Both the position numbers and the translations under genes were made by a program. The notes beneath the pieces were generated by a model that saw nothing but the letters and a program-made list of their open reading frames with translations, made no database searches and was not told where the DNA came from. Below are positions 171-51,339 of a stretch of DNA of 64,000 nucleotides, in pieces (position 1 is the stretch's first letter; each line of letters starts with the position of its first letter). This DNA comes from Octopus vulgaris (lineage: Eukaryota). The stretch is taken from the NCBI GenBank assembly GCA_951406725.2, contig OX597820.1, positions 100,502,001 through 100,566,000 on the forward strand. The letters are read 5' to 3'.

Positions 171-356
171 GGGGGAGAATTCACAAAAAACAAAGGACAA
201 AGACAGGTGGTGTAGACAACAAACAAATGTATTAACTAAATGCTCGGGAAATGAAAAAGTCTTTAACATTTCGAGCCTACGCACTTCCACTGAAAGGAAC
301 ATAGAAAGAATCAAGGAGAGAAAATAAAGAATGTGTAGTGGCTAGCGATTTAGCAT
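171..356 (-). mobile_element. Penelope pLTR-like mini-insert in (TA)n with a degenerate minimal hammerhead at 259-297
   Basis: Flanked by TA repeats. Minus strand reads CTTT-CAGTGGA-A-GtGC gtag GCTC-GAAA-TG-T-T-AAAG. Confidence 0.5.
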
Positions 357-384
357 GTATATATATACATATATATATATGTGC

Positions 385-423
<39 letters not shown>

Positions 424-626
424 ATCCAAACATGAACAAAGAGAAAACACGTGAGGATGTGGAACAAGTATAGTGTTATTGGACGCTCAGGAGAGGGAAG
501 AAAGAAGGAGATCTTCCTCAGAGATATAGAAAAAAGAAAAGGTCCAAAGAAAGGAAAAGAAAGAAAATCACCAATGATACTGGCCAATATATATATACAT
601 TTATATATGTGTATACATATATATTC

Positions 627-670
<44 letters not shown>

Positions 671-972
671 GATGTACTTGCATAGCAAGTAATTTGATCT
701 GAGATCGTGTGCTGAAACGAAAACAATTGCAGCAAGTAATTTATATATACATGTATATACTCGCTAAAATCCGCAATATGTTCACTGACAAAAATTCTAG
801 CATGGATTTTTGTCAGTAAAATATATACCAATATATAACTTAAATGTTATATTAAATGGCTTATAAACACCTTCCATCATTGTTATATATATATATATAT
901 CTTTATATATATATATATATATATATATAACAAACATTACATGACATGTATGCAGAGGGAATATATATATAT

Positions 973-1220
973 GCCCCTCTGGTGAATCTCTGACATGTCA
1001 TGTAATGTTATGGATTGGCCCTGCCCCTCTGGCTAATCTGACATGTCACATAATGTTATGGATTGGGTCTACCCCTCTGGCTAATCTGACATGTCATGTA
1101 ATGTTATGAGTTGAATCTACCGCTTTAGCGAATCTGACATGTCATGTAATGTTATGGATTGGGTCTGCCCCTCTGACTAATCTGACATGTCATGTAATGT
1201 TATGGATGGCCCTGCCCTGG
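973..1220. repeat. Minisatellite, 5 x ~48 bp with palindromic TGACATGTCA core; inverted partial unit at 926-959
   Basis: Unit gcccctctggctaatctgacatgtcatgtaatgttatggattgggtct read directly. Confidence 0.9.
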
Positions 1221-1239
1221 CAAATCCCCCCCGACATGT

Positions 1240-2201
1240 TGTGTCTCTTAGGCATTGAACTGATGAGCTTTGTGGAACTTCTGCCCACTTTTCATTCAAC
1301 AATCAAAAGAATTCACCTTTAGCTTTAGGTTTCTGTTGAGTTTTTCGTATAGCTCTATCTCATATACTCCATAGATTTTCAATTGGGTTCATGTCAAGAG
1401 ATTGGCTGGGCCAAGTAAGCTTTTTCATCTCATTTTCAGTCAGCCATTGTTGATTCCTTTTCGCTGTATGGCATGGAGCCCCATCTTCCATGAATAAAAA
1501 CTCATTTTTCGTTATGTTATTATGTGAATACATCGGAAGTAGTCGTTGCTTAAGTATTTCGATGTATTTTGCAGAGTTTATGGTTCCAATACATTCAATC
1601 AGCTTAAAACGACCATTGCTGGTGACAGCTCCCCATACCATTACAGAGATACCGCCATGTTTCACAGTTGGTTGGAGTTGTTTCAAATCAAATTCTTGAT
1701 TGGGAAGCCTCCTGATCCAAACACGTCTACTGTCTGAAAATAATGCAAATCTGGGTTCATCTGAGAAAATCACGCTATCCTAAAATGAACTGGATTTCTC
1801 TGACATCTCCTCATTTCTTTCTTTTCATGATATTAATTGGTTGAAAGAGAGGTTTTCTTCTAGCGGCTTTTCCATAATATCTAAGCTTATGCAGATATGT
1901 AACACATGTTCTTGGACTAACTTCTAGCTGTTTTGCAATATCAGAAACCTTTGAACGGGGTTCGTTTTTCACAATTCTCTTCAAACAGTGACGCTTCCTT
2001 TCCAAGTCCCAGGTCAGCTGGGATGAGAATTTGTTGATTCTTTCCTTGGCTTTGGAATTGCACTATAATTCTATTTACAGTAGCAAAAGGAATTTGAAGA
2101 TTTTCGGCAATTTTTCGCTGGCAAAGACCAGCCTCAGATTGCCCAACAATACGACCTCTTTGAAAATCTGACAGTTCTGCTGAATTTTTTGTGCATGGCA
2201 T
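1240..2201 (-). mobile_element. Tc1-family (DD34E) transposase pseudogene
   Basis: Three frameshifted ORF pieces: [12 protein letters not shown] (HTH); RRKPL; IFSDE...PTVKHGGISVMVWG...EDGAPCH-(34 aa)-NPIENLW. Confidence 0.92.
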
Positions 2202-2259
2202 GGTTACTCTTTGCAAATGTTTAATATAATGGCACCTGGAATGAAAAAGAATAATTACA

Positions 2260-2465
2260 TTGTATGTTTGTCTGTCTGTGTTTGTCCCCCACCATCGATT
2301 AACAACTGATGTTGGTGTGTTTATGTTTTCCATACATTTGCAGTTCGGCAAGGGAGACCGATGGAATGAGTACTAGGCTTACAAAGAATAAGTCCTGGGG
2401 TTGATTTGTTCGACTAAAAGAATGGCTACAGTCAAATGACTGAAACAAGTAAAAGAATAAAAGAA
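2260..2465 (+). mobile_element. 3' half of SINE family A
   Basis: Matches 40150-40388; ends tgactgaaacaagtaaaagaataaaag. Confidence 0.75.
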
Positions 2466-2475
2466 CATATATACA

Positions 2476-2697
2476 CAGGAGGTATTGAAAAGTTCCTGAC
2501 TTTAAGGGTATCATGAAAAGTGTGGTTGGAGTCCCAACCTTCTGAGTTCTTTTACAGGGATTAGAAAAATTGAAGGGTCACTGCAATAAGCATGCAAGTC
2601 TGAGAATGGAATATGCTGAATAAAATCTTAAGTAACTGATCCACCTATATTTTCTTTTACTCAAAGCCAAGAACTTTTCAACCCCACCCACCTCGTA
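2476..2697 (+). mobile_element. Non-autonomous mariner-derived element (MITE)
   Basis: Imperfect TIRs tgaaaagttcctgacttt / aaagccaagaacttttca; remnant of a mariner-like C-terminus (gaatatgctgaataa); ends in TA. Confidence 0.6.
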
Positions 2698-2725
<28 letters not shown>

Positions 2726-2728
<3 letters not shown>

Positions 2729-3255
2729 TGGGTTGTCCGGAAAGTAGTAGCTTACGTTTCGACTTATTTTAGAAACATGGTTGAGTCCATAAAATAGGAT
2801 TTGACTACACCTCCATATAGAGCACAGTTTAAGCTATCTTTTCGTGGAAGATTTATGTTCCTATAACCTGTGTTAATTCTGTAACCCGTTAAAATGGAAT
2901 ATAAGAAAGTTCATTTTTGGCATTTGATGCTTTGGGAACCAGACAAAAATTGCTGCACCCTCCATATTCACCAGATATTGCTCCTTCGAATTTCCACTTA
3001 TTCAGGTCTCTGCAGAATAGTCTTAATGGTAAAAATTTCAATTCCTTGGATGAAGTAAAAAGATACCTTGATGAATTTGTTGCCATGAAACCACCTCATT
3101 TCTGGGAAGAGGGTATTTTCAAGTTAAAGGAAAGATGGAGACGTATTGTGCTACAAAATGGTTCATATTTGGTTGATTAAAAATGTAATGGCAAGTATTT
3201 ATTGACCTTTTTCTTTCCTTTAAAAATCGGCATGAACTTTCTGGACAACCCAATA
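2726..3255 (+). mobile_element. Internally deleted mariner element (mellifera-like)
   Basis: TIRs tattgggttgtccggaaagt / actttctggacaacccaata with TA ends. ORF 2917-3180 contains HPPYSPDIAPSNFHLFRSLQNSL...GIFKLKERW. Confidence 0.92.
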
Positions 3256-3586
3256 TATTTCGTTTTTAGATTTGGTTTGCAAGATTCTTTATGTGAGTTT
3301 GTGTGTTGAAGCATATACTGTTGTGTCTGGGGAGAGTCATTCTCTTTTGGTGCCTTGTGGTTTAACACACTCACCGCTGGAGTTTCCACTTGTTTCTTTT
3401 TAATTTTCTAAAATTTTTGTTGTGTCTTGCAACCTTTACAATAGTTTTGACTTTCAAAACTATTGAAAGGGTTGCGGGAAACAGTAGGAGTTTTGGAGGA
3501 ATAGCGGGGAAATGGGTGGAAGTTTTACTGGTGAGTGTGTTGAGTTGTAGGGTGCCAGAAGAGAGTGACTCTCCCTAGATACAACA

Positions 3587-3587
<1 letters not shown>
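3256..3587. mobile_element. Fold-back Penelope pLTR-like element, same family as 31560-32000
   Basis: ggggagagtcattctc is inverted as gagagtgactctccc; central hairpin at ~3429-3475; (TA)n on the right; degenerate hammerhead-like motif at ~3408-3444 (minus). Confidence 0.6.
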
Positions 3588-3643
<56 letters not shown>

Positions 3644-3761
3644 TATATATATCTATATATATAAAAAATCACAATAAGGGGGAAAAAATTGAATATTAAT
3701 TAATAATACCAATTTAAAACACCAAGTGGCCTAGCGTGATAAAACTGTGATACTTATTACT

Positions 3762-3835
<74 letters not shown>

Positions 3836-5799: not shown

Positions 5800-6950
5800 G
5801 AAAACAAACAGCAGAAATTATTAGCAACCCTTGAAGGAAAAAGCGAGACAACTTCAAGAATTTGGGAATTAATCTATCATGTTTGATATTTGCGGGTAAG
5901 AGATGACTTTTGACTAAATCTTTATAATGAGATAGCCGGTAAAAGACACAGGTTAATATTTTGGTATCAAGTGCAGTGACATTGTTTTCAATGAATTTCA
6001 CAAGGACAAAAGACTACAGGTGAGTGACATAGAAGAGCATGTGACCAATACCATTGTGGCAGTGATGTAGAAGAGAGGCGTCAGGTGTTGGAGAAGATAA
6101 TTGTCAATGGCTGCTTCTATCACCTTAAACATGTTGGAATGAGTGTGATTGGTTGATAGTTAACAGGATTAGTGAAGTTGTCATCTGGGGAATGGAACAC
6201 ATTGTAGCCTATTTTTAAAGCTTGAGATGATCCCCTATAGGGAATGGTTAAAGAGTTTGACAAAGATAATGGGAGGCTCTGAAGCATGGTATTTAAGGCA
6301 ATAAGATAGCAGAAACGTTAGCACGCTGGGCGAAATGCGTAGCTGTATTTCGTCTGCTGTTATGTTCTGAGTTCAAATTCCGCCGAGGTCGACTTTGCCT
6401 TTCATCCTTTCGGGGTCAATAAATTAAGTACCAGTTACTCACTGGGGTTGATATAATCAACTTAATCCATTTGTCTGTCCTTGTTTGTCCACTCTGTGTT
6501 TAGCCCTTGTGGGTAGTAAAGAAACAGGTATTTAAGGTTATAAAAGGGATAGTGTAAGGGTTAGTGGCTTTATTGGTTTGAAGTGATCAAAAGTCTGAAA
6601 AGACTTGACAATGTATGCAAACATAGTAGTGAGACTCGTGTAGTAAAAAGAGAAAGTTACGATGGTCTAGTCAAACGTGTATTGTGGACATGGATGCACA
6701 ACATGTAGTATAATTGGAAGTCTTCTCTGTGGGAATGATGATTATGAAACCATCATAGGTGGAAGTGTTCAGAGGACGACAGAGACAGCAGATTAATTCA
6801 AAGAGGTGAAGAAATTTCTTGTTGCTACTACCCAGTGAGAGAAATAAATAACAAAGAGAGTGGATTGTACAAAAGAGCAGATATGGTGTTACCGACATAG
6901 TACAGTAAACCACCACATGTTAGTATGTAGCATTCCCATCCATCATAAGG
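5800..6950 (-). mobile_element. Degenerate CR1/Jockey-group LINE reverse transcriptase, split by a SINE
   Basis: Minus translation NKATNPYTIP..LKYHASE..IFVKLFNHSL...NPVNYQPITLIP..FKVIEAAI..YLLQHL...VTALDTK resembles KA.GPD.IP..LK......LF..SL...NYRPISL..SKV.E...ALD.SKAFD. Confidence 0.7.
6299..6526 (+). mobile_element. tRNA-derived SINE family B (Deu/Nin-like core) with 11-bp TSD
   Basis: Box-B-like gagttcaaattcc; core gactttgcctttcatcctttcggggtcaataaattaagtacc; ggtatttaagg at 6288-6298 and 6527-6537. Confidence 0.85.
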
Positions 6951-7884
6951 AGAGATATAAACACATCGTACCAACCAGAACCATCCTTAACTAATTTTAG
7001 CATAATCAACAACTGAATAAGAGGAGATAAATCTCCACTCAACACACTCACTATTGTCTTTATGAAAGGACTTGTAAGTTTTATCATATATTTTAAGACA
7101 TGTCTTAAGATAAAGTTAAGATGAACACAGCTATTAATGAATTATCTAAAAGTCTTTTGGAACAGAAATCAGCTGGTTGAAGGTATTAAGTCAACTAACT
7201 GGTTGCATCATCTTAATGTTCCAAACATTACTGTGTATGTGAGATAAAGTATAAAATCCCAGAGAGAAGTACACTTTCTGTGGGCCAAGAAAACACTTGC
7301 AAATGATTTATTGGCCTGTAATGCTGAACTCTGAGATGCTGCAAACACAATAACAGTAATCTGTTTACATGATGCTCTTTTAGAATGCTTAGAATTTCTT
7401 TAACTTATACCAACTATGAACTACTTTCAAAAATTAGAATAAAAGTAATTGGTTTTAACAATAACTCCAAAATATACCAGTTAAGAAGCAAAATGTTAGC
7501 TTAAACTGTCTAACTCATGAGGTATTTCATATTGCATTTCTGATTTTATTTATTTTTTTTAATCATAGTTGATTTATTTGAACATCCTTGTTATGCTGTG
7601 TAATGGTGTCAGTGACAAAGTCACAGTTTCAAGTGAAGAACATTTTGACACCATATTGCAAATATAAATGTTTAAGTGAAGTTAACAATCTTTGGCTAAC
7701 ATGTGTCTTCCACACTGCAGTTGTTTTAGCTTCAATGCACAGTCTCAGATCGAATCACTTCCCTAGCAAGTGATTTGAGCTGGGACTGTGCATCTCTGTA
7801 ATCCCAATTATGGCAGAGGGTTAACAGCCTGTAAAGAAATGTTCAATTATCTATTACCAAATGATGAGTCTTAACCACAGTTGA

Positions 7885-10978: not shown

Positions 10979-11848
10979 CTCCATTTCTAATGTCAAAATT
11001 TCAACAAGGAGGGGAAGGGGGACAGTGATTATTGAACTGTGCAAAATGAAACAAAGTAACAAAACTGTTGTTTGAACCAAAATCTTAAATGGTTAGGTCA
11101 ATCAATGTAACACTCAGTCACTGCAATTATATTGGAGTCTTTATTGATATGATTTCAGAATCAGAAAAAGTGGGTGCCATTGCAGAGGTGGTTTAGTTCT
11201 AACAAAACCAAATTTATGACCCAGGATCATTTTTTGGCTGTAGTTACTTTACTTACTCCACTGAGCATTTATAAAAAAAATGAAAGACAAAGAACATATA
11301 TTATGATTTCACTTACATATAGTGGTCCAACCCATGCCAGCATGGAAACCAGATGTTAAATGATGATGACAGTGATACTAATAACCTGTTGTTAGAATTC
11401 AACATGCATATGCTTCAGAATAAAGTGTTAGAAAAGTACAGAATATAATATGAAATTAATGGAAAGGCAAGAGAACAGGAATGATATAATGTAGCAGAAA
11501 CAGCTATTGAAGTTGATTATATAATTCCTGTTCCCTAGTCATTCCATGAATTTCATGTGTGTGTGTGTGTGCATACATAAATACACACATATACTTATAT
11601 ATATTCATATGCATACTTACATACACACACATACACATATACATACACACACACACGTGTGTGTGTGTGTATTATGTTTTTATGTATTATACTATAACAA
11701 TACTTATAGTATAATACATAAGAATATCATCATCTTCATCATCATTTAACATAATAAGAAATACATAAGAACAGACACTATGAAACAATATTATTAACAT
11801 AATAGTGTTGCATAACGTACATAATCACATTCTGTTCATCTAGACAAC

Positions 11849-18220: not shown

Positions 18221-18223
<3 letters not shown>

Positions 18224-18487
18224 AAATTTAAAGGACTGACCACTAAAAGTGGATGGTCAATATGCTAGATATAGACGTCAAAAATCGCTATTTTCCACGA
18301 AGAATGTGTTCTCACATTCTTTGTGGAAAATAGCGATTTTTGACGTCTATATCTAGCATATTGACCATCCACTTTTAGTGGTCAGTCCTTTAAATTTTGT
18401 AGGTAAAAAATATTTTAATCTTTGGATTTTTTTTAATATGCTAGGCCACTGGTTTTAATTGATTAATATCAATTTCTACCCTTATTC

Positions 18488-18490
<3 letters not shown>
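18221..18490. mobile_element. Fold-back insert in (TA)n: 180-bp palindrome plus ~90-bp single-copy tail
   Basis: Arms 18221-18308 and 18313-18400 (88 bp, one mismatch), 4-nt loop. The tail is related to the reverse complement of 3670-3735. Confidence 0.85.
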
Positions 18491-18541: not shown

Positions 18542-18704
18542 ATCTATATATATGAGTCATTTGCTTAAGATTGGATGCAGAAGCTTTATTCCAATCACAG
18601 GATTTCCATAATCTTATACAGAATAGGTAGAAACACATATGAAGCTAATATCAAGTTAAGAAAAAAGTATATTACTCCAATAATAACTTATATAAAAAAA
18701 ATAA

Positions 18705-19115
18705 ACAACAAAAATATAAACATGTAACAAAAATACAAACATATAACAATATAACAATGACATGCTACAAAATATAGACAGGTAACAGGAAAGTAGGCAT
18801 GTTACAAAATGTAACAGGAGCGTAGGCACATCACAAAATATAAACATGTAATAAAAGTGTAGAAATGTTACAAAATATAGACATGATACGAGAAAGTAGG
18901 CATGTTACAAAATATAGACATATAACAGAAGGATAAGCATGTGAAAAATATAGACATGTAACAATAGAGTAGGTGTGTTACAAAATATAGGAATGTAACA
19001 GAAATGTAAGCATGTTATAAGATATGGACATGTAACAAGAGTATAGGCATGACACAAAATATAGACATATAACAGAAGTGTAAGGAATGTTACAGAATAT
19101 AGATATGTAACAAGA
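18705..19115. repeat. Degenerate minisatellite, ~37-bp unit (acaaaatatagacatgtaacagaaagtaggcatgtt), ~10 copies
   Basis: Read directly. Confidence 0.85.
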
Positions 19116-21780: not shown

Positions 21781-23639
21781 TATCTGCTTAGGAGATAGAA
21801 GAGGCAGCAAAAGTAGTGAGGGTGAAACAACTAGCTGTGGGGAACATCAGAATTGAGAGCATGTGTGAGAGATACTGCAATGGTGCAAGCTTCCACTCAA
21901 GAGATGACAGATAAATGTAGCCTATATTTAGCTAAGAACTTTAAAATGTTCAAATTCTTTAATTTGAATCCTACAATAATTTCCCTTCTGAAAATATATA
22001 TAATTTCCTACTGAAAAGGCATCAATGGATTTTTTAAAACCATGAACTAACACCAAATTAAATATGCATATGTTTATATAATTCTTCAATAACCAATAAA
22101 TAAAAGGAGACAAATGCAATATCTCAATAAGATAATAACAGTCAAGATTTGGAGACACAAAACCTAAGAAATACATTTGTCATAATCAAAAACGAATTTC
22201 CATTACGTTATTTAATGAGTGATATAAGAAATCACCAAAGTGGTTCCCCAAATGAAGATAATGAAACAGTTCAAAATTTGGTTCAAGAAAAGATCCCTCA
22301 CTCTATTTAGTATATAAACCAGGACATGATAAAAGTTGAGGAAATATGAAAAAGTGAGTAAGTTTTGAAATAAACTTTATTGATATAAAGATGACTGCGT
22401 CAAAGCTACAGGGTTTCACAGACAAAAAAATCTACCTAGCAATTTCTAACATTAATGAAATGAAAGGTAAATCCCATAATTCTCCAAGACAGGAAGCTAT
22501 TTTATATCTAAGTTTCCTGATGAAAAATGTTGAGTATAGCAAGCTAATAGTAAACTTGTCAAGTATAGTGTTTCTTCTGCTTATAATGTTGAACTGTATT
22601 TTACATATAGGGTGTATTTATTTGCTTTGTAGATATGCGACAGGTTTTACTGAGAATTCCCTGAGCACAACAACTTAACATAGTATAAGCATGGTTTGAT
22701 TTTCATTGAGGAGCTTATGACATTTACTTTTGTATTGGTTATAAATGTGTACCAATTGTTATTGCTTACTGAAAAATTAAATATAAAATTAGGTGCTAAT
22801 AACTGTACAGATACACATTCTGGCACTCGGTGATTGCTTTAATACTCAACTGTAAGTATGCATATACATACATACAACTGAACTTTAAAACAATCATCAA
22901 GAAATCTCAAGTTATAAATATCTATAAGTTTAATCGCAGTTAAACATTTTGAACTTAGAAAACATCATCTATTTAAAATACAAATTAACAGTAAGGGAAC
23001 AGAAATCCTCCTGGTTAGGTGACACTATACTTGCAGTATACAACACAATGAAATTATGGTCTTAACAATCAGTCATATGAGATGCGTACAATCCGAGTCT
23101 AAATGCAAACACTGGACAATTTGTGAAATATCAAAACATCTTAAACACCTTAATACAGTTACCAATAGTTCTCAGCATGACAAATATCAGGCTTCCCTGC
23201 CAAATCATTAGTGAAAATTATGAGCCTCTTTGCAAATAAATGCAAAAGTATTTTACCTCCATGTGATTCTTTTCTATTTTATTTTTATTCACTTATTTAT
23301 TTTGCCATGGATTTGGACAAGTTTCAAAAGTTGGAAGTAATTTATTTGAAAATAAATTGTACACATAAATAAAGCCTATAATAATGTTAGCAGCCAGATG
23401 TTCATGACTGAAGATGAACAAAATTAGCTTGAAACTGAGTCAGTCACATGATCTTGTCGTTTGCTGGAGGATGATAGGAGTTTGCTCCCCTGTTTGCAAT
23501 ATATACAGTGTGCAGGCTGCACCTATAACCAGCCGGCAGATCTGCCTAGAGTTAAAACAAGAGTAACATTGAACAGTCATATCAATGTGGTGATTAACTT
23601 TGAATGTTATGTTTATTGACGAAATAACTGATATTAAAG

Positions 23640-29997: not shown

Positions 29998-30432
29998 AAT
30001 GATCATGATGACGATGATGACATCTAGTACACTCTGTAAAGTGGTTGTTATTAGGAAGGGGATCCAGCTGTTGAAACCACACCAAGAGAGACATTAGGGC
30101 TTAGCGAAGTCTTTTCACCCATCAATTCTCGATGAACCATCCAATGTCACTCTAACATTTAATATTTATGTCTGCATTTATCTACCTATCTACATCCACA
30201 GACACACACTCATTGCAAAATGGAAGAAATCCTTTTCAGTATTATGGAAAACACCCAAATTTCTCCTACTGCTAAAAATGACATTGCACCTAGTAGGAAA
30301 AAGATTAAAGCTATGTGCTTTAATACTGAGTTATTTTTCAATGCTCCTAACTTCACTTATTTTGGTGCATATAAAACTGAAAAACTCTGTAAATATATGT
30401 AATTTCAAGCTATTTTTCCTTCAAGATTAATT

Positions 30433-31178
30433 GTTATCGCCAAGCTAACATGGCAGTCCAGGAAAATAGGATAAATGCTGCCATTGATTAGCTCCAAGAG
30501 GCCATCGTCTTTAGCTAGCTATGTGACACACAAACCTGTGTCCATTATAACCTTCGAACAGGGGAGGTCAGCCGCTTCCCCTTGCTGGACTGGCATCTAG
30601 AAACTAGTTTTGGGGTATTTGCCCCTTATCAACGGAGAGCAGGCGAACCCAGCAGGCATTGCTGCTGACCATCTATTTGAAGGATTATTTACCTAAATTC
30701 GGTGGAATATATCCACTGGTCTTCAAAAATAGAAATAGTAATATTTCTAAGTCTCTCTAAAGGAGAAGGTTATAATGGACACAGGTTTGTGAGTCACTTA
30801 GCTAGCTAGAGGCAATGGCCTCTTGGAGCTAAGCAATGGCAGCATTTGTCTTATTTTCCTGGAGTGCCATGTTAGCTTGGCAATAACTATTAGAGAGACT
30901 TAGAAATATGAGTGATGCCTGCTGAGTTTGGCTACTCTACATAGATAAGGGGCAAATATCCCAAAACTAGTTTGTAGATGCCAGACCAGCAAGGGGAAGC
31001 GGCTGACCTCCTCTGTTCAAAGGTTATAATGGACAGAGGTTTGTGTGTCACATAGCTAGCTAGAGACGATGGCCCCTTGGAGCTAATCAACAGCAGCATT
31101 CGTCCTATTTTCCTGGACTGCCACGTTAGCTTGGTGATCTGCTGCCATAGTCTCCTTTAGAAAGATTTAGAAATATTA
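30433..31178. mobile_element. Penelope pLTR-like composite: one unit facing two inverted copies, with two hammerhead-like motifs
   Basis: 30433-30660 is inverted at 30914-31138 and partially at 30766-30888. Motifs at 30597-30637 (-) and 30937-30977 (+). Confidence 0.75.
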
Positions 31179-31559
31179 ATATTTTTATTTCCTTCAATAG
31201 TTTTTCGTATAATTAAAAATTTGTCTATGCATCTACACCCAGTAGGAATTTTTTGTGTGACATCTCTTTCTTCACCCTCTCTCTCACCTCTCTGTTGCTT
31301 TCTATTTCTCTGTCCTCCACCACTATTTTTCTTTCTCCTCTCACTACCATACAATCTATGACCATTCCTTTTTTTCACTTGACCACTGATTTGTTCAGTC
31401 ACCTTTCACTCAGTCTCTCACTTCCTTCTATACTTCCAACAAAGGGTTTGCTTTTACACCTTTTATTCAACCTTTCCTTCTGTCCACTTTCTGTTTCCAG
31501 TCCTACAGCATATTTTCCATTGCAATACTTATACATACATCTTGTGTCAGAGCTGCACA

Positions 31560-32000
31560 GCTTTTATTTTGTTTGTATATTGTATATTTTATTTCGTTTT
31601 TATATTTGGATTTTTGGTTTGCAAGAATTCCTTATACGGATTCGATTCTTGTTGAAGCATTTTTTTTTGTGTGTGTCTGGGGAGAGTCATTCTGATTTAA
31701 TGCCTTATTAATTAACACACTCACTGGTTCAATTTCCACTCATTCACTTATTATTTTTTCTAAAATTTTCATTGCTTCTTGCAAGCTCTTCAATAGTGAT
31801 TGACTCTATCTGTTATCAGAGCAGCGATCTTTTTGTTTCAAGAAAGAACTCAGCTCTGATAACAGACAAAATCAACGACTATGAAAGAGCTTGCAAGAAG
31901 CAATGAAAATTTTAGAAAAAAAGAAAAAATGAGTGGAAATTGAACCAGTGAGTGTGTCAATTGATAAGGCATTATAGAGAATGACTCTCCCCAGACACAA
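31560..32000. mobile_element. Fold-back pLTR-like element, ~150-bp arms plus one-sided extension
   Basis: gtgtctggggagagtcattct (31673) is inverted at agaatgactctccccagacac (31998); homologous to 3256-3587. Confidence 0.8.
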
Positions 32001-32298
32001 TAAAATACTGTATTTTTATTTTGTTTATATACTTACATTTATATTCACACACACACTATCTGTGTTGTACCTGTTTGCATCATTGCCCTCAAAGCTTACT
32101 TACTGTTCCCAGTAGCTTTTTGCTATTGACCCCACCAAAAATGAACAATACTATCATTAAAGGCATGAAATTGCAATAATATTTTGGCTGATAACTGATG
32201 AGGAAAGAGCATGTCAATGTTTTGTGTGTGAATCTTTGGTTCATTCCTTTGTTGTGTTTCTGTTTAATTTTTTTGAAACATATATATATATTTTAAGT

Positions 32299-32630
32299 GC
32301 AGGAGTGGCTGTGTGGTAATGAGTTCCAGGTTCACTTCCACAGCATGGCACCTTAGGCAAGTGTCTTCTATCATAGCCAGATGGAAACTGAAAGAATCCC
32401 ATTGTATATGTATATATCTAAGTGTGTCTTTGTGACCCCCACCACCACTTGACAACAGGTGTTGGTATGTTTACGTTCCCATAACCTAGTGGTTCAGCAA
32501 AAGTGACCGATAGAATAAGTACCAGGCTTAAAAAGAAAATAAGTACTGGGGTTGATTAGTTTTACAAAAATTCCTCAAGGCGGTGCTCCAGCATGGCCAC
32601 AGTCTAATGACTGAACCAAGCAAGAGAAAA
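32299..32630 (+). mobile_element. SINE family A
   Basis: Head gcaggagtggctgtgtggtaa; tail cagcatggccacagtctaatgactgaa. Confidence 0.85.
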
Positions 32631-33371: not shown

Positions 33372-33376
<5 letters not shown>

Positions 33377-34202
33377 TAATAAATATTAGGGAATAAATCC
33401 AAACTTACAGGGAAAAATCAGATTTAGGATTGAATCCAATTTTATAGTAAAATATTATATTATATTAAATTAGAGACAAAACCACTATTAGGCAAATCAA
33501 ACATGTCTAATTTAATAGCATAATTTATATTAGATAATTATTCCCATTCATAATTATATTTATAGTACTTATAGTATTTATTTGATACTATATTACTAAG
33601 AATTGAATATTTCTATAAGTATTTTACATAAGATTTTGAAAGTCCGTTTAAGTTAGTTTATTTGTATTTTGAAATTAGCTATTTCATCTTTAAATATGAA
33701 AAATTAAATTTATTAGGTTTTCATTATATACAATTATTTATAGAGATTATTTTAGATCTTGATTATAATATTTATATATATTTTCATTGATAATTTATAT
33801 ATATTAGACATTTTAAATATTTATGTAATTAGATATAGACTAATATTGATATTAGATTATGGGTTTTCTACCTTATAAATTAAAGTTAATATTTCACACT
33901 ATAGTCGATTTCGATATAATCATATTTAATAATAGAGTTTATTATAAGTAAAATTATTATATTATATATATTATTTATATCTTAAAAATATTGATTATAT
34001 TTTAGATATTTAAACCACCTGATGAATGACTGCGACTCAAAAATTTGAAGAAGTTAGCAGGCATGAAACGATCGTAGTGTGATATTAATTATATTTTTTT
34101 AATAATTTTGTTATATACTTAAATAATATAAATTAAATAATCTTATGTATTGGCTCAAGTTTTTCATTGTTTGATTTGCCTAATAGTGGTTTTGTCTCTT
34201 AT

Positions 34203-34209
<7 letters not shown>
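33372..34209 (+). mobile_element. AT-rich Penelope-like non-autonomous element in (TA)n with inverted terminal segment and hammerhead
   Basis: 33462-33503 is inverted at 34168-34209, with extra sequence beyond the left copy. TA tracts on both sides. Hammerhead at 34016-34079. Confidence 0.75.
34016..34079 (+). ncRNA. Type I minimal hammerhead ribozyme, intact core
   Basis: CAC-CTGATGA-[ATGaCTGC...GCAGgCAT]-GAAA-CGATCG-TA-GTG: canonical core, palindromic stem III, GUA cleavage triplet. Confidence 0.75.
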
Positions 34210-35477: not shown

Positions 35478-35521
<44 letters not shown>

Positions 35522-35635
35522 GAAGTGGAAATCCACAACACCATCTCTTCGGTTATCTGGCCAGATAACCGAAGAGATGGTGTTGTGGATTTCCACTTCG
35601 GCATCTGAAACTCAGAGTTTTATCTTGACTATTGA

Positions 35636-35680
<45 letters not shown>

Positions 35681-35841: not shown

Positions 35842-36255
35842 GAGTATAAAAAACAGACAAAATACCACTAAGCATGAGGTGCTGGCATTGCTGTAAAAAT
35901 CAGAGTTGAAAAATCCTTTTTTTGATGCTGACTTTTACAACAATGCCGGTACCTCATATGCCCTATTCATCATCATCATCATTTAGCGTCCGCTTTCCAT
36001 GCTAGCATGAAATTAATTATAAAATTTTCGATTTGCCATTTATCAGCTTTTGCTTGTTGGCCACTTATGTTATTGTTGTTTTTATTTATTTTACTATTAC
36101 TAATAATAATAATATCTATATAAATATTTTTTGAATATTTATTCATTTATGAAATTTATATACTGACACCAATTTTGAATTTGGTGCAAGCTTTTCAATG
36201 GTTACCAGGCACAATAAAACGAGTAAAGTTTTTAACCCTAGGTATATAGTGAGAC

Positions 36256-36309
36256 CTGCTGATGAGAATGAAGGGAGTTAATCTTAAAATTCAAAATCAA
36301 TTGATTCAG
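36256..36309 (+). ncRNA. Type I hammerhead-like motif with G12A (CpG-type decay)
   Basis: CTG-CTGATGA-[GAAT...ATTC]-aAAA-TCAATTGA-TT-CAG. Confidence 0.55.
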
Positions 36310-36578
36310 TGATATCTATTTCCTCATTCTGCAGTTTTCTGCCAAGATGGTAAGTTAATTACTTTGCTTGTCGCCCAATTTCTGTTGTGCCTATTGTATT
36401 TCCAGTGATTGATGGTTTATTAGAGGATTTTTTGATTCTGACTTTTACAGCAATGCCGACGCCTCGTGTGCCCGAAGATAGATCTGTATACATATGTGTG
36501 TGTGTGTATGTGTGTGTGCGTGCATATATTATATATGTCTCTATATAATACATGAATAGGCACTATATATATATATAT

Positions 36579-36729
36579 AAGGCACCAGAATTTAATATGG
36601 TATTATCCATATAATTCAAAATGGGGTTATTATCACCCCATTTTGAATTATATGGATAATACCATATTAAATTCTGGTGCCTTTAACTTAAGTACCATAT
36701 TCAACTGAATCTAAATTTTTACTGAACTT
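36579..36729. mobile_element. Fold-back insert in (TA)n: perfect 49-bp arms plus ~46-bp tail
   Basis: Arms 36579-36627 and 36635-36683. Confidence 0.85.
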
Positions 36730-44018: not shown

Positions 44019-44066
<48 letters not shown>

Positions 44067-44136: not shown

Positions 44137-44167
<31 letters not shown>

Positions 44168-44242
44168 TAATAATTGTAATAATAATAATAAAATGACAAC
44201 AAAAGAATGAGACCTCGATATTATGTAAATAGAGGAATATAT

Positions 44243-44686: not shown

Positions 44687-44706
44687 ATATATATATATAT
44701 ATATAT

Positions 44707-44883
44707 ATAGGACAATCAGTAAGTTGTCAGAGTTTCAAATGGCAGAGGTAAGAGCCTCAAGGCATTTTCATTGGTTATTTTGATGATAGTCGATGAAAAT
44801 ACCTTGAAGCTCTTAGTTCCGGCTTTTGAAACTCTGAGTTGTATTATGATAACTTACTGATTGTCCTATACTAAATATTTCTT
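44707..44883 (+). mobile_element. Fold-back insert in (TA)n with a hammerhead-like motif at 44783-44847
   Basis: taggacaatcagtaagtt is inverted as aacttactgattgtccta; motif tCGATGA-[AAA...TTT]-GAAA-CTCtGAG-TT. Confidence 0.65.
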
Positions 44884-44906
44884 TATATATATATATATAT
44901 ATATAT

Positions 44907-45011
44907 ATCACCTGAGGAGATGTATATGCACCTATGATGCATTACAACGGTTTGTACAGCATCTCACCTGCAAAGTACTAGTGCATGATGGGTCGAAATG
45001 ATTGTAGTGAT
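44907..45011 (+). ncRNA. Hammerhead-like motif with long stem II in a TA-flanked insert (44909-45050)
   Basis: ATCAC-CTGAGGA-[GA...TC]-GAAA-TGATTG-TA-GTGAT. TGATTG is CGATCG after two CpG transitions, as at 34069. AATAAA follows at 45016. Confidence 0.55.
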
Positions 45012-45051
45012 TCTGAATAAAGAGTTTAGTGAATTCCATTTTTTTAATATT

Positions 45052-45091
<40 letters not shown>

Positions 45092-45107
45092 GCAGTGTAG
45101 GGTGTAG

Positions 45108-46749: not shown

Positions 46750-46889
46750 GTGCAGGTGGGGCTCTGCACGGCACCTTGAGCAAGTGTCTTCTACTATGGC
46801 ATCAGGCTGACCAAAGCCTTGCGAGTGGATTTGCTAGACAGAAACTGAAAGAAGCCCATTGTATAAATGTATATATATGTATGTGTGTG

Positions 46890-46948
<59 letters not shown>

Positions 46949-47410
46949 CTTTGCGTCTGTGCTTGTTCTGCCACCCTTGACAACTGGTGCTGAGGTGTTT
47001 ATGTCCATGAAACTTAGTGGTTCAGTAAAAGAGACTGATAGAATAAGTACCAGGTTTTTGAAAAATAAGTATTGGGGTTAATACATTTGACTAAAGATTC
47101 TTGAAGGTGGTGCCCCAGTGTGAGCTGGCAGAAACATTAGCACGCCGGGTGTGAGCTGGCAGAAACATTAGCACGGCGGTATTTCATCTGTCTTTATGTT
47201 CTGAGTTCAAATTCTGCTGAGGTCAACTTTGCCTTTCATCCTTTTGGGGTCAATAAGTTAAGTACTAGTTGAGTACAGGGGTTGATCTAATCGACTAGCC
47301 CCCTCCACCAAAAGTTTGGGCCTTGTGCCTAGAGTAGAAAAAAAAAAAGAAGTGGTGCCCTAGCTTGGCCTTAGTTAAATGACTGAAACAAGTAAAAGAT
47401 AAAAGAAAAG
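46750..47410 (+). mobile_element. SINE family A interrupted by SINE family B (47119-47351)
   Basis: TSD GTGGTGCCC(c/t)AG at 47107-47118 and 47352-47363; the B head is tandemly duplicated (31 bp). Confidence 0.85.
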
Positions 47411-47514
47411 ATCTCCAGTGATAATTATAAGTCAAGATACTAAATCTCAGAGCTTCTACATGTTCATTTGATCTGTTAAAAATAGCAACAAAATCTCCTT
47501 CAAATCACATTCAT

Positions 47515-47955
47515 TATCATCATCATCATTTAACATCTACTTGTTCATGATTGCATGGTCCAAATATAGTTTATTTGAAGCAGATTTTTCTACAGCCAGA
47601 CTTCATCTGTTTCCAAGCAAAGTAATGTGTCCATGGCCAGACATTCTTGCAGAATATTGGAAATAAATAACACTGCTTGTATGACTGACACTCATTTACA
47701 ACTATCATGCAATGTCAAAACAAGGAGACACAAGTACCTCCTCCCCCCACGCACTACCTTTCTCTCTCCCCCCTCTCTCTCACACACACACGTTTGTATG
47801 ATAGGCTCCTTTCAGTTTCTGTCAACCAAATTCACACAAAAGACTTTGGTTAGCCCAAGATTACAGCGGAAAACACTTGTCCAAAGTGCATGCAGCAGGA
47901 CTGAAACCAGGACCATGTGGTTGGGAAGCAATCTTCTTACCACAGAACCATGCCT
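47515..47955 (-). mobile_element. Chimeric SINE D: family-A head with a different body and RTE-type (GAT)n tail
   Basis: Head 47800-47955 matches family A. Body 47560-47730 matches 15185-15400, 55935-56122 and 56791-56970. Confidence 0.65.
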
Positions 47956-49499
47956 TCTACCACCTTAACCTTTAGCACACTGTAGGTGCATCAAGTTATC
48001 ATACAAGTTTTCTGTCCTGTAGTTGCTGGGCAGTGGCAGGGGGAAACAATTGTAGAGAAAATGCAATGTCCTAGAGGTTAAACAGAAGAAGGACATGTTA
48101 GATTATATAGTTTGATATATTCTCTGCTTGAGGTAGGAAATATGGCATGGTGATGGCTCAGATACTTTTGATCATGGATCAACTTGACCTGGTTTGACTT
48201 GGGTCTAAACAAACAAACATACAATACATGTGAGCACTGGTAGCTATCCAGGGCAAATGTTCTCATTAATGCATCAATCGAATTGGCTAATTTCTTTTAT
48301 TTATTTAGTAAACAAACTATCACGTTGCAAAGCTGTTGGCTACTATTTAAGAAGCTAAAAAAATTAATCTTGTCACTATCATTTGGATTACACGCAATGA
48401 ATCAAAGATTAAATGTGACTTGTTATTTTTTTTCTTTTTTGTGCGTGTTCTATATTAAATCTGCCAGTACACACAATGCAAATAGTTTTAGCTGTATTAA
48501 TGGGTTTATGTGAAAATGACGAAATAAAGAGCAATTTAATTTTCTGTATGACAATGATGAATTTTTTTTTACTATGGTAATAATCAAAATGAGCATGATT
48601 ACAATTATACTCCTTATATTCTTCAGCTACTAACTTTGAGGCACTTTTCAGTACTATAAAATTTTGAAGTTAAATTTTTCCTTAGAGACATATATCCTCC
48701 TCCTCCTCCTCCTCATTATTTCCATTTCTGTTCTCAGAGCTCTCAATTTCACTTGCTCTGGTTAATTCTGTAAGAGCAGAGCTGTACATGTTGTCAAAGA
48801 TCCCACAGGGTCTCTTTTCACGATACTTAACACCCAATCAGATTCCCCGGCATAAAGAATAAATAATTCTTTTAGCGCAACAGACATCAGTAAAAGCAAC
48901 CAAAATAATTACAGCCTACTATGATTTGGAGTAGCATAGTGGAACAGTGGGAGTCAAGAATGAGGAAAAGAGAGACAGTTAAATCTACATTCATCATTAT
49001 TACATTTCTAAGATTACTTGCAGCATATTGTCTCCAACTCTTAAGAATTAAGCCTTTTGGGAGTTAACAGTTAAGTTTCTGCTAGTGGTGATAAATGAAT
49101 TAAATGTCAGATATTCTCCCTGGCCCTAATTTTATTGAGACCAAAAGTTTAGCCTAATCTACATAAAAAGGCATATCAGGGACCTGCTAGTAAGAGAATG
49201 ACAGAGAGAGAGGGAGTTGAGAACTAGAATGAGGAAGGAAGGGGGTGGTCAAATATATTTAGATTATCAAATAAAAAAGGCATAAGGTTGAAAACAAAAA
49301 GAGGCCAAAAACCTTAAGGGTAGTAGTTAAAACTGAGGGTGATGGAGCATATCTCAACTATGAAATTAAGTTAAAAATTCAAAAAGGGAATTTTATAACC
49401 ATATAGAGAAAAAAAGGGATATATAAATTATCTTAAACCCTAAAAATGGGGTACTATAATATATAAGAGAAAGTTCATAAGGCTTTTCCTAAGTATAAT

Positions 49500-51001
49500 A
49501 CTAAGGTGGTCATACTAAAACCATTCAACAATGAATTTATAATTAAATTAAATGTCATCTGAGTAGGAGTACATAGGTTTTTATGGTTGTGCTTTTCTTT
49601 TTTGTCAAAAAACACTCGCACTGTTTATTGGTCTACTGGGGCAGAAACAGTTAAGGTCATGTTTGTCTACATACTCTTTGTCACATGTAAGTCTAAGGAG
49701 GTGGCTCAGTTCCTTTATATTAACATCACGAAACCCATGGTCTCCAAATACCTAATCTACCAGAATGCAGCAATTGTGGATAATACCAAGTGCAATATCT
49801 TAGTAAAATACTTGGTAAGGGTGATGAGAAACATATCCTGAATGTGTGACCCAACAAAATTAGGTAGACACAAACAACACTTAATCTACCCCATGCAGTT
49901 CTCTGGGTACAGCCATCGAGACAAGATCGGAGTGTACAAAGTAGCCATGGCTAAATTCAAGACCATGTTAGAGAATGATGCAAAGAGGATTTGCCTGCTA
50001 TATAGAAGCAAATCATGGAACAGCAGAGAAAAAACTAAGAGGAAGATAGCTAAGGGCAACTTGTGATAGCCAAAAATACCAGAGTGTCATGTTTGTTAAT
50101 ACTACCCCTAAAGGTGAACTAACATGTCATTTTAGAAAAGCCCCACCTTAAACAATTCTATGTATAAATGTAGTGGAAAGGCCAGGTACCTCCATAAAAT
50201 CCTTGATCAGTAGAACATACCCATTTGAGAGAATCACCTTTACCAATAGGAATGGTATAGTGTGTAGAGTAAGCCCAAAGATAAACTGCAAAACGAGGAG
50301 TGCTCTCTGTAGCATAAGCTGTACAGAGGGATGGTGCAGAAGCAGGACAATGACATATTCTAGAGGGACAGCCCATAGCATAGGTGGGAGGATAAGTGAG
50401 CATTAGTGGGAACTCACAGAGGAGAAAAGCTCAAGCTTGTCAGTGCTATACCAACATGCTAAACTTGAGTATGTTGGGTTTGCTGGAGAACATAGATGTT
50501 GGGATCTTACTGATACATAGAACAGACACAATTCTTAGACAGATTACAGAGACGACACACATAATAGGAAATAGACCAAGCCTGAACAGAAAATGTGAAT
50601 GAAGTAATAATTCCACAACTACCACCACCACATTCTGCAACCCAACAACTAAGGACAGAGTAAAAGAAAAATAAATAATGATACAGATACAAACAGTGTA
50701 ATATACAAACCTATATACACACATATGACACACCTAACATACCTAACACATAGACACGCACATGTACAGATGTAAATGCATGCACATATAGGTTTACATA
50801 CTACAGAAAGACAAAATGAGATAGACGGGACAAGACCAGACTGGAGTAGAGACATGAAGGACAGAAAGTCACTGAAGTGGTCACAGAATGTGTAACAAAA
50901 AACTCTGATAAAGCTAAAGTGAAGATCAAATAAATAGTGCGCGTGTTTATTGGCCAAAAAGAAAAAGAAAAGAAAAGACAATGACCATCTCCAAATATGA
51001 C

Positions 51002-51010
<9 letters not shown>
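49500..51010 (+). mobile_element. Penelope-like retroelement fossil (RT end, GIY-YIG endonuclease, 3' region)
   Basis: FLYINIT (cf. FLDI.I); GYSHRDK; INCKTRSALCSISC...GTAHSIGGRISEH (GIY-YIG-like). The end abuts (TA)n with an inverted terminal copy. Confidence 0.6.
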
Positions 51011-51056
<46 letters not shown>

Positions 51057-51339
51057 TCATATTTGGAGATGGTCATTGTCTTTTTCTTTTCATATGTATG
51101 TATATATATAATACGTTAAAACTTTCTCATAGTAATGTCATTAAATGTATTTTATTAGAATGTTTTACTTTATTGACTGTTTTAATTTAGCATTAGATCA
51201 TGTATGAAGATTATGAAATAAAATTTTCAAGATAAAATTGAAATGGTAAAATTTCTTGGAAATGCTTTAACAAGATGGCCCAAAGACATCAAATATTTAT
51301 AAATACCTCACACATTCTATTTTTTATGTTTTATGTAAA

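Follow-up and report, generated by a model that had tools for sequence, protein, structure and literature searches.

The window, i.e. the whole 64,000-nt stretch of Octopus vulgaris DNA that was analyzed, contains two fossils of Penelope-like elements (PLEs) and a series of inserts, which are named here by the start positions of the first-pass annotation. Near the left end, a pLTR-like insert without inverted arm lies between TA tracts on the minus strand (171–358) and bears a decayed minimal hammerhead (261–296; U4A, A6U, extra A before stem II, U17), which at 8.2 bits is not significant alone; a second minus-strand insert in its TA tract (421–586) aligns weakly to it and has the 5′ half-core only. 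The plus-strand fold-back at 3256–3587 has arms at approximately 3319–3450 and 3454–3587, a 3-nt loop, a left tail of ~63 nt, and a decayed hammerhead on the minus strand (3408–3444). A tail-only fragment between TA tracts (3663–3763, minus) is related to the tail of insert 18221, a near-perfect fold-back inside (TA)n (18222–18490, plus; 85/86 identical) with a 91-nt tail. At 23402–23451 (plus), a type-I hammerhead with canonical core, palindromic stem III, GUC, and damaged stem II was detected, with no fold-back or TA tract nearby.

A retrozyme-like family with hammerheads at 30596–30638 (minus) and 30936–30978 (plus) occupies 30426–31190 on mixed strands, followed by a fold-back of the high-copy 3256 family (31560–32000, both strands) with a 110-nt tail and U17 hammerheads at 31760–31796 (minus) and 31879–31915 (plus). 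Inserted in (TA)n, 33374–34205 (plus) has unequal arms of ~130 and ~700 bp, with an 88-nt tail and a 42-bp short arm on the minus strand and the ~700-bp arm on the plus strand; its type-I hammerhead (34016–34079, plus) has a canonical core, GUA, and an 8-nt palindromic stem III. Also inside (TA)n, 35520–35636 (plus) is a perfect 41-bp fold-back with a 35-nt tail and a hammerhead (35563–35625) showing U4C, U17, and a 6-bp stem I. At 35868–36473 (plus), a hammerhead-less fold-back of ~95 bp precedes a longer piece of the same family (~460 bp) with a hammerhead at 36256–36309 (G12A, U17). Two further plus-strand fold-backs inside (TA)n are 36580–36728 (50/51 identical, 46-nt tail) and 44710–44884 (17-nt tail), the latter with only the 3′ half of a hammerhead resembling that at 35563; a complete hammerhead was not found in inserts 18221 and 36579. 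The insert at 44907–45046 (plus) begins at stem I of its hammerhead (44907–45011), which has a canonical core, GUA, and a stem III decayed at two CpG positions.

Both GIY-YIG PLE fossils that had been annotated at 49.5 and 60.2 kb are real. The first comprises an inverted pLTR copy at the 5′ junction (49535–49700, minus; score 64, whereas the best of 983 random windows reached 44), a broken, 5′-truncated ORF with RT thumb, Cys linker, and GIY-YIG domain (49731–50557, plus), and a 3′ UTR/pLTR (50558–51090, plus) with a weak hammerhead (50869–50908; 7.5 bits), ending at a (TA)16 tract flanked by a 35-bp inverted repeat. The ORF gave 105 matches to RT + linker + GIY-YIG proteins (best E 1.7e-25), and a Cys linker is visible in homologues. 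The second fossil (60164–60406, minus) lies between two non-LTR 3′ ends and matches PF01541 with E 5e-4, below the curated cut-off; no pLTR or hammerhead is attached to it.

Fold-back structure and TA targets

An inverted copy is present in eight of the ten inserts named in the first-pass annotation and was not found for 171 and 44909. BLAST of the microsatellite-masked window yielded 23 local inverted pairs vs. 0–1 per shuffle (30 shuffles), about seven of which are copies of other dispersed repeats in opposite orientation. The seven measured tails (17–110 nt) are on one side only; two are within about 30–46 nt, and four (63–110 nt) are longer than the published 30–40 nt. A TA tract adjoins at least one side of eight of the ten inserts and both sides of six, against a background of 3.3% of positions, and for 30433 and 31560 the nearest (TA)8 is more than 1.3 kb away. 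Among 13 fold-back loci defined by BLAST alone, seven have (TA)≥8 within 10 bp of an end (p ~2e-8). The earlier statements that most inserts carry an inverted copy plus a one-sided tail and sit in or beside (TA)n mostly hold; inverted 5′-truncated copies with one-sided tails and (TA)n bias are both features of PLE insertions.

Hammerhead motifs

A strict descriptor found one match (34019+) vs. 0.08 per shuffle (12 shuffles), while relaxed descriptors like those of the first-pass annotation gave 4 vs. 1.9 and 17 vs. 7.3 matches and therefore discriminate poorly. With a log-odds model, which was written after the candidates had been seen, five type-I matches of at least 20 bits were obtained vs. 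0.09 per shuffle (121 local dinucleotide shuffles): 34019+ (31.8), 35569+ (26.5), 36259+ (21.8), 23408+ (21.4), and 44912+ (20.3). The conserved core CUGANGA...GAAA...UH with helices I–III is present strictly in 34019 and with deviations in the other four. Scored positions 34019, 35569, 36259, 44912, 30602, 30942, 31793, 292, and 50872 fall within or at the originally annotated motifs 34016, 35563, 36256, 44907, 30597, 30937, 31760, 259, and 50868, respectively. Of about twelve hammerheads proposed originally, four are significant, and 23408+ had been missed; the other eight are decayed (2.6–14.9 bits) and singly not significant, with shuffles giving 6.7 matches of at least 12 bits and 40 of at least 8 bits per window. 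Motifs 30597/30937 and 3408/31760/31879 are supported by family evidence, 50868 by its position, and 259 by layout alone; 44783 is incomplete, consisting of a 3′ half, and does not show the conserved core in full.

As to a palindromic helix III, which would allow dimers, calculated self-duplex energies are −7.4 to −13.2 kcal/mol for 34019, 35569, 36259, and 23408, −4.8 kcal/mol for 30942, and about zero or positive for 44912, 31793, 292, and 50872. In one aligned family (four arms), 87.5% of stem positions are paired vs. 28–56% when slid, with no compensatory pairs. G12A is preceded by C in 36259, 30942, and 50872, the CpG o/e of the window is 0.28, and for motif 30602 GUC is restored in the family majority (4063/4282 depth in contig set X1); we read these features as signs of motif decay.

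If the motifs had arisen by chance in MITE-like DNA elements that are palindromic and AT-rich, this would agree with the many shuffle matches of relaxed descriptors, with the eight motifs lacking significance of their own, and with the finding that no hammerhead family is among the 150 listed of 258 Rfam matches in the window. This reading, already disfavored, is very improbable in view of the five matches of at least 20 bits, the enrichment in fold-backs (which make up 6.8% of the window and contain 5 of the 16 matches of at least 12 bits; p 0.003), the GUC-restoring majority, the link to a PLE ORF, and one-sided tails and head-to-head arms, which are foreign to MITE anatomy.

The ~340-bp head-to-tail family

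In 30426–31190, one unit of ~341 bp on the minus strand is followed by head-to-tail plus-strand units that are partial, internally deleted, and starting. The local hammerheads show U3-A8 and G12A; GUC and a stem I of 6 bp are the majority state of the family. The unit has 43% GC and no ORF, and folds with a z-score of −4.0. The head-to-tail joint 30766→30426 was found in five contigs of X1, two of X2, and one of X10. In a contig comparison that covered 30380–32620, depth over the 30433 and 3256/31560 families is 15,000–600,000 vs. ~56 on flanking contigs, values which are not copy numbers. Head-to-tail, non-coding units of 150–450 bp with less than 50% GC, as in retrozymes, occur in this family and not in the other nine inserts. 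No consecutive units were found that each contain a complete hammerhead, the local plus-strand array having one hammerhead-bearing unit, with G12A. As judged from its sequence, the family is a high-copy, retrozyme-like hammerhead monomer of ~340 bp that is not TA-associated, and no earlier description of it was found in the literature surveyed.

Origin of the inserts

At the sequence level, the fossil at 49.5–51.0 kb ties the hammerhead and fold-back anatomy to an RT + GIY-YIG ORF. In a relative's locus (L001), a 28.5-bit minimal hammerhead lies ~80 nt past the ORF; it has U17 and one additional nucleotide ahead of stem II. Such an ORF followed by a hammerhead-bearing pLTR was found only at 49535–51090 and in L001; for the other hammerheads of the window, including the short inserts, a PLE profile of one clade detected no ORF remnant upstream.

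The inserts are quite probably 3′ ends (pLTR pieces) of several PLE families, which likely used their own GIY-YIG/RT protein to insert them into TA microsatellites, and 3256 was likely copied again from an ADAR-edited hairpin RNA. Observed in support are the inversion of arms, the tails on one side only, the flanking TA tracts, and five hammerhead motifs that are significant; in addition, a 5′-truncated RT-thumb/GIY-YIG ORF with an inverted pLTR at its 5′ junction is followed by a 3′ UTR with a hammerhead-like motif. For the steps from nicking to arms, we infer from published biochemistry that the protein would nick both strands of AT-rich DNA, that reverse transcription of uncleaved RNA would begin at two close internal sites, the stretch separating these becoming the tail, and that it would halt early at variable points, leaving head-to-head arms. 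Hammerheads would be carried along as passengers and then decay; the 30433 family would be an exception, behaving like a non-LTR retrozyme. Variable truncation is indicated by the 36259 family, which also occurs as a hammerhead-less fold-back, by the unequal arms of 33372, and by the tail-only piece at 3663. Fixed start sites are indicated by the 3256 and 31560 copies, whose short arm terminates at the identical place. Against this explanation, a tie to an ORF exists for a single insert, which also has the weakest hammerhead, and four of the seven tails are longer than published. Moreover, in five of nine hammerhead-bearing pieces the start is no more than 65 nt upstream of stem I, and contig depth drops ~100-fold (91,013 to 915) immediately before the 31760 motif on its upstream side; short fixed templates fit these two observations better than random truncation.

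Such templates could come from fixed-length non-autonomous families (retrozyme- or SINE-like pLTR derivatives) with their own short RNAs and PLE protein supplied in trans. The local head-to-tail arrangement, joint, and folding of the 30433 family, the probable movement of 3256 as a whole hairpin RNA, the 5′ junctions clustered near stem I, and the known existence of non-autonomous pLTR-forming PLE derivatives speak for this. For most inserts it is nevertheless unlikely: the others lack the tandem arrangement that defines non-LTR retrozymes, one is joined to an ORF, and truncation varies within a family. Sequence from either side of the cleavage site is also retained in the inserts, whose templates were therefore not hammerhead-released monomers, and the fold-back of 35520 is predicted to bury the ribozyme by 54 kcal/mol.

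As another, still less likely possibility of our own, RT may start internally in the 5′-proximal pLTR of a normal PLE mRNA and run off the transcript 5′ end just upstream of the hammerhead, so that autonomous PLEs shed short hammerhead palindromes as by-products. For PAc, initiation was shown to take place internally, past the hammerhead in the downstream direction, on RNA that had not been cleaved; the pLTR hammerhead of L001 precedes sequence repeated at the contig 5′ end; and stem I is preceded by a junction at a distance of 0–8 nt in 35520, 44909, and 3256, ~40 nt in 31560, and 62 nt in 171, in addition to the depth drop at 31760. However, the inserts were ascertained as short and hammerhead-bearing, four of nine pieces reach 128–1160 nt upstream, others stop downstream of the motif, and stalling or self-priming at the hairpin accounts equally well for the clustering.

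Of the first-pass interpretation, the PLE origin is supported, and the label "non-autonomous, retrozyme-like" was not shown for most inserts. One hammerhead lies in the 3′ UTR of a 5′-truncated, ORF-bearing PLE, and one family occurs both as a ~460-bp piece with a hammerhead and as a 95-bp fold-back lacking one; variable 5′ truncation, already invoked in the literature, fits both cases. The label does appear to fit 30433 (tandem, not near (TA)n) and 3256 (whole fold-back RNA). The proposed "major unannotated repeat class" was overstated, since thousands of motifs per genome have been published for other animals, PLEs are already annotated in octopus, and the motif density came from one window.

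Probable RNA-editing signature of the 3256 fold-back

The arms of 3256–3587 differ by 35 G·T vs. 0 A·C mismatches (p 6e-11), a bias absent from each of the nine other fold-backs in the window. Polarized with the 31560 copy, which is only ~73% identical and makes polarization imperfect, the changes are 25 A>G, 6 C>T, and 4 unresolved, with both arms hit. The edited fraction depends on the 5′ neighbor (U 0.52, A 0.43, C 0.20, G 0.08; 5′-G p 0.027), in agreement with the published ADAR preference; the 3′-neighbor signal is weak (G 0.44, U 0.55). In the unpaired tail, A>G makes up 2 of 13 differences, so that one-strand A>G clusters confined to the duplex and depleted after 5′-G are found here, as expected for a copy of ADAR-edited RNA.

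From this single case, it is likely that 3256–3587 is a retro-copy of an A-to-I hyper-edited plus-strand hairpin RNA, the whole fold-back having moved through RNA as one unit. An existing fold-back was probably transcribed as a single plus-strand RNA, which would have folded into a hairpin of ~135 bp hyper-edited in both arms, and would then have been reverse-transcribed from a TA-primed 3′ end and re-inserted. Alternatively, without new insertion of edited RNA, the bias could reflect selection on an expressed hairpin (small-RNA precursor), in-place conversion by the locus's edited transcript, or a sequencing artefact. The far better fold of the plus strand (−173 vs. −102 kcal/mol) is compatible with this, and the editing reading rests on the assembled sequence of one case; yet selection would keep C>T no less often than A>G and predicts no 5′-neighbor bias, and three near-perfect hairpins of the window are free of such errors. 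We consider these alternatives together unlikely, though in-place conversion may have occurred.

We therefore lean slightly toward a broader view, in which PLE fold-backs are themselves mobile: palindromes would be transcribed, hyper-edited as hairpins by ADAR, and reverse-transcribed into TA microsatellites, so that the germline genome would hold DNA fossils of A-to-I-edited RNA (3256–3587 being one) alongside the high-copy ~340-bp hammerhead retrozyme family. If real, 3256 would directly demonstrate the in vivo passage of a PLE palindrome through dsRNA and its re-insertion as a unit, fix the template polarity, and show that editing does not stop retrotransposition; it would also reveal a route from RNA editing to heritable DNA change in a heavily editing lineage. 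Counting G·T vs. A·C arm mismatches over all fold-backs would be a cheap genome-wide way to separate primary from RNA-relayed insertions and bears on how PLE inverted repeats form. Avian proviruses with A-to-G hypermutation have reportedly been described; in the parts of the literature surveyed, we found no report of an editing signature in genomic DNA of a non-viral retroelement palindrome.

Comparison with known systems

The general insert anatomy is the textbook PLE pattern, to which the window adds a cephalopod example. Minimal hammerheads in pLTRs of metazoan PLEs are of type I with short helix I, palindromic helix III, and a U3-A8 variant; many unrelated families per genome reach thousands of copies, and opposite-strand pairs 100–700 bp apart were attributed to truncated PLEs (Cervera & de la Pena 2014, PMC4209133). 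In the parts of that account consulted here, there is no mention of cephalopods. The window motifs, which are predicted from sequence, share type I, short helix I, palindromic helix III, U3-A8, one more nucleotide between A9 and 10.1, and occurrence in unrelated families, but several have U17 and palindromes of 6–11 nt. For EN+ PLE insertions, 5′ truncation, an adjacent inverted truncated copy, a one-sided tail, an inverted junction that is palindromic, a preference for (TA)n together with a Cys linker, and two internal RT start sites were described (Craig et al. 2021, PMC8557442; Arkhipova et al. 2013, PMC3846280; Frangieh et al. 2024, PMC11167929). Truncation, inverted copy, one-sided tail, junction palindrome, and (TA)n bias with a Cys linker recur here, and two start sites are likely; in contrast to these descriptions, with tails of 30–40 nt, four of seven window tails have 63–110 nt, many inserts are a palindrome alone, and one palindrome was apparently re-mobilized as edited dsRNA.

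With animal non-LTR retrozymes (Cervera & de la Pena 2020, PMC7229834; Li, Clavereau & Pollet 2026, 10.64898/2026.07.22.740005), the 30433 family shares the ~340-bp head-to-tail unit, 43% GC, absence of an ORF, a type-I hammerhead, strong self-pairing, and high copy number. It differs in that the local copies are decayed (G12A) and of the minimal U3-A8 type, with no two consecutive complete units seen, and the other window inserts are not tandem. Finally, the one-strand A>G clusters in a long duplex and the 5′-G avoidance at 3256 resemble ADAR hyper-editing of inverted-repeat RNAs (Bazak et al. 2014, PMC3941102; Albertin et al. 2022, PMC9068888), and the target is a repeat, as in coleoids, which edit repeats widely (PMC9068888). 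Unlike in those RNAs, the signature at 3256 sits in the genomic DNA of a non-viral retroelement palindrome.

Fold-back inserts and their targets

The window has a GC content of 33% and is dense in repeats. After masking of microsatellites, self-BLAST detected 23 local inverted pairs, compared to 0–1 in each of 30 shuffles; about 7 of the 23 are copies of other repeats in opposite orientation. Ten short inserts (171, 3256, 18221, 30433, 31560, 33372, 35520, 36579, 44707, and 44909) had been described in the first-pass annotation as mostly carrying an inverted copy and a one-sided tail, and as mostly located in or beside (TA)n. An inverted copy was found for eight of them, but not for 171 and 44909. 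The arms are arranged head-to-head with one arm longer, leaving tails of 17, 35, 46, ~63, 88, 91, and 110 nt. A TA tract touches at least one side in 8/10 inserts and both sides in 6/10 (background 3.3%). Inserts 30433 and 31560 are each more than 1.3 kb away from any (TA)8. When loci were defined from BLAST alone, fold-back ends were located within 10 bp of (TA)≥8 at 7 of 13 loci (p ~2e-8).

Three further small fold-backs (7735–7793, 11453–11553, and 11674–11727) were present, of which two adjoin (TG)/(CA) and not (TA); no hammerhead was scored in any of the three. At 50968–51090, a 35-bp inverted repeat is centred on (TA)16 and lies tail-to-tail around the target, a geometry opposite to that of the other fold-backs. 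A single TA tract (2696–3835) contains an element with inverted ends (2729–3253), which we take to be mariner-like, a probably edited fold-back, and a tail fragment of a Penelope-like element (PLE). When the transposon at 2729–3253 is taken out, the insert at 3256 has TA flanks on both sides. Also, remnants of Tc1-like DDE transposases (1360–2210, Pfam DDE_3, E 5e-11; 52877–53540) and two minisatellites (972–1217 with a 48-bp unit and 18696–19115 with a 37-bp unit) were found; between-unit differences in the 37-bp array are G/A-biased.

A probable edited fold-back at 3256–3587

The plus strand of 3256–3587 folds into a single hairpin of ~135 bp, with 40 differences between its aligned arms. 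Taken as base pairs within this hairpin, the mismatches comprise 35 G.T, 0 A.C, and 5 others (p 6e-11); this G.T bias was absent from all nine other fold-backs tested. Using the copy at 31560 as outgroup, the changes were polarised as 25 A>G on the plus strand (20 in the right arm, 5 in the left), 6 C>T, and 4 unresolved. In the unpaired tail, A>G accounts for 2 of 13 differences. If each G in a G.T pair is taken to have been an A, 35 of 95 paired A's were changed, with a fraction depending on the 5′ neighbour (U 13/25, A 18/42, C 3/15, G 1/13; 5′-G depletion p 0.027, U/A versus C/G p 0.005), while the 3′-neighbour signal is weak. ADAR favours A.C mismatches, and the zero A.C pairs next to five transversion mismatches would fit this preference. 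A test for A.C-to-G.C 'repair' gave 4 AT>GC versus 3 G>A shared changes and lends this no weight either way. The 5′-neighbour bias agrees with the aversion of ADAR to a 5′ G described in PMC3941102.

Primary insertion via cDNA snap-back would yield identical arms, and separate editing of two sense templates would put A>G on opposite strands. A>G on one strand in both arms is expected only from a single RNA that contained the two. The most likely history therefore leads from a donor fold-back via transcription and editing to reinsertion: the donor would be transcribed by read-through, the transcript would form a hairpin and be hyper-edited, and reverse transcription primed at (TA)n would then insert the edited copy as 3256–3587. 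Alternatively, the last step may have been in-place conversion at this locus rather than a new insertion. Edited avian proviruses are a precedent for edited genomic copies. Donor transcription, editing, and reinsertion are proposed here for one case, read from assembled sequence. Wide editing of repeats in coleoids is reported in PMC9068888, and a literature search at the level of titles and listings found no published report of a genomic copy of an edited fold-back. The edited palindrome is the sole part of the system that a specialist would not foresee, and it is directly testable genome-wide.

Hammerhead motifs

With a strict descriptor, the motif at 34019 (+) was the sole match in the window (1 versus 0.08 per shuffle). 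Relaxed string descriptors gave 4 and 17 matches versus 1.9 and 7.3 in shuffles, so the relaxed scan proposed earlier is expected to return mostly noise. A log-odds model, written after the candidates had been seen, gave five matches at ≥20 bits, all on the plus strand (34019, 35569, 36259, 44912, and 23408), versus 0.09 expected from 121 shuffles. Four of the twelve hammerheads named in the first-pass annotation are among them; the other eight score 2.6–14.9 bits and none is significant alone, but several are still real as decayed family members. The match at 23408, missed before, belongs to a type-I hammerhead at 23402–23451 with GUC and an 11-nt palindrome; its surroundings showed neither a fold-back nor a TA tract nor a detectable ORF.

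In the 30597/30937 family, contigs from three DNA runs indicate that the cleavage position is C and stem I spans 6 bp in most copies. C is the majority base at 30602, e.g. with a depth of 4063/4282 in run X1 (rows 30602 and 30600, among the 40 of 294 rows listed). For 3408, 31760, and 31879, stems were paired in 87.5% of cells versus 28–56% when slid, and no covariation was found in these stems. The motif at 44783 represents the 3′ half only, and a complete motif is absent from 18221 and 36579. G12A is preceded by C in all three G12A motifs compared, which, with a CpG o/e of 0.28 in the window, is consistent with decay of CpG sites. U17 is not necessarily a sign of decay, as it also occurs in L001, the locus of a PLE relative. 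At 35520, the ribozyme fold lies buried in the fold-back structure by a margin of 54 kcal/mol. A search of Rfam at E ≤10 showed no hammerhead among the 150 of 258 matches listed; miRNA-type hairpins were matched.

Candidates at 6279 (+), 56798 (+), and 26595 (−) with 17–18 bits are located within or near other repeats; they were not accepted. A dispersed repeat (55932–56113 and 56788–56959, also 47580–47739) has a hammerhead-like layout with a long stem II and two core deviations (17 and 12 bits); it was not accepted as a ribozyme.

Linkage to Penelope-like elements and truncation

The PLE fossil at 49731–50557 (+) encodes a broken RT thumb, a Cys linker, and GIY-YIG. HMMER detected 105 homologues (best E 1.7e-25), with RT as well as GIY-YIG in the long ones, tblastn gave E 3e-48, and the closest homologue is an Octopus bimaculoides protein with ~42% identity. 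Word-indexed protein searches with both PLE fossils of the window gave no match, and three pieces of the 49.5-kb fossil were not detected by Pfam. At its 5′ junction, this fossil carries an inverted copy of its own 3′ end; the copy scores 64, and none of 983 random windows exceeds 44. The weak motif at 50869 lies within its 3′ UTR, and the element terminates at (TA)16. In L001, the locus of one homologue, a minimal hammerhead of 28.5 bits is located ~80 nt past the ORF; as the metagenome scan led to this one locus, hammerhead presence in its clade rests on n=1. L001 is apparently intact, its hammerhead (3232–3275) has U at the cleavage position, and its contig ends overlap as expected of a tandem. 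Upstream of the other hammerheads, including 23408, 34019, and 36259, a PLE profile of one clade revealed no ORF remnant.

No pseudo-LTR (pLTR) was found for the 60.2-kb fossil, a piece of GIY-YIG. At 59.2 and 60.9 kb, the ORFs are non-LTR ends (zf-RVT) and were rejected as PLE. These 5′-truncated ends (59250–60003 and 60937–61660), presumably Dong/R4-like, flank the GIY-YIG fossil, carry a zinc knuckle and a restriction-like nuclease motif, and each adjoin (AAT)/(GAT) tracts.

Truncation is variable: the 36259 family is also present as a 95-bp fold-back without hammerhead, the arms at 33372 are unequal (~130 and ~700 bp), and 3663–3763 is a tail by itself. Of nine hammerhead-bearing pieces, five start no more than 65 nt upstream of stem I, and contig depth drops from 91,013 to 915 immediately upstream of the 31760 motif; both count against purely random truncation.

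Comparison with known elements

Overall, the system proposed in the first-pass annotation is mostly known PLE biology, and about half of its motifs were overstated. Cervera and de la Peña (2014; PMC4209133) describe minimal hammerheads in thousands per genome and in unrelated families, with an extra nucleotide before stem II, a palindromic helix III, and the U3-A8 variant, as well as opposite-strand pairs spaced by 100–700 bp and judged 'probably related to truncated PLEs'. For PLE inserts, an inverted truncated copy, a 30–40-bp tail, and a (TA)n bias are reported (Craig 2021; PMC8557442), as are palindromes at PLE junctions (Arkhipova 2013; PMC3846280). Frangieh (2024; PMC11167929) showed nicking of AT-rich DNA on two strands, two internal RT starts accounting for the tail, and uncleaved RNA as template. 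Penelope is abundant in octopus annotation (PMC8967140), and 235 hammerheads are annotated in giant squid (PMC6962438). A search at title and listing level found no paper on octopus hammerheads; families from cephalopods may be included in supplementary material to Craig 2021 and to the papers on retrozymes.

The family at 30426–31190 consists of a ~341-bp unit on the minus strand followed by head-to-tail units on the plus strand (one partial, one with an internal deletion, and the beginning of a third). The unit has a GC content of 43% and a folding z of −4.0. Among the runs whose contigs were compared, the end-to-end joint was found in X1 (5 contigs), X2 (2), and X10 (1) and in none of X15, and it occurs in DNA runs too; X10 is guessed to be RNA but also covers the single-copy flank, so it has no bearing on expression or circles. 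Contig depth over the family was 15,000–600,000 versus ~56 on flanking contigs, depth not being equal to copy number. Judged from its sequence, the family appears retrozyme-like rather than a proven retrozyme, complete hammerheads not being seen in two units in a row. It is a probable new addition to a known class, and in size and layout it matches the non-LTR retrozymes described in PMC7229834 and in a preprint by Li (2026).
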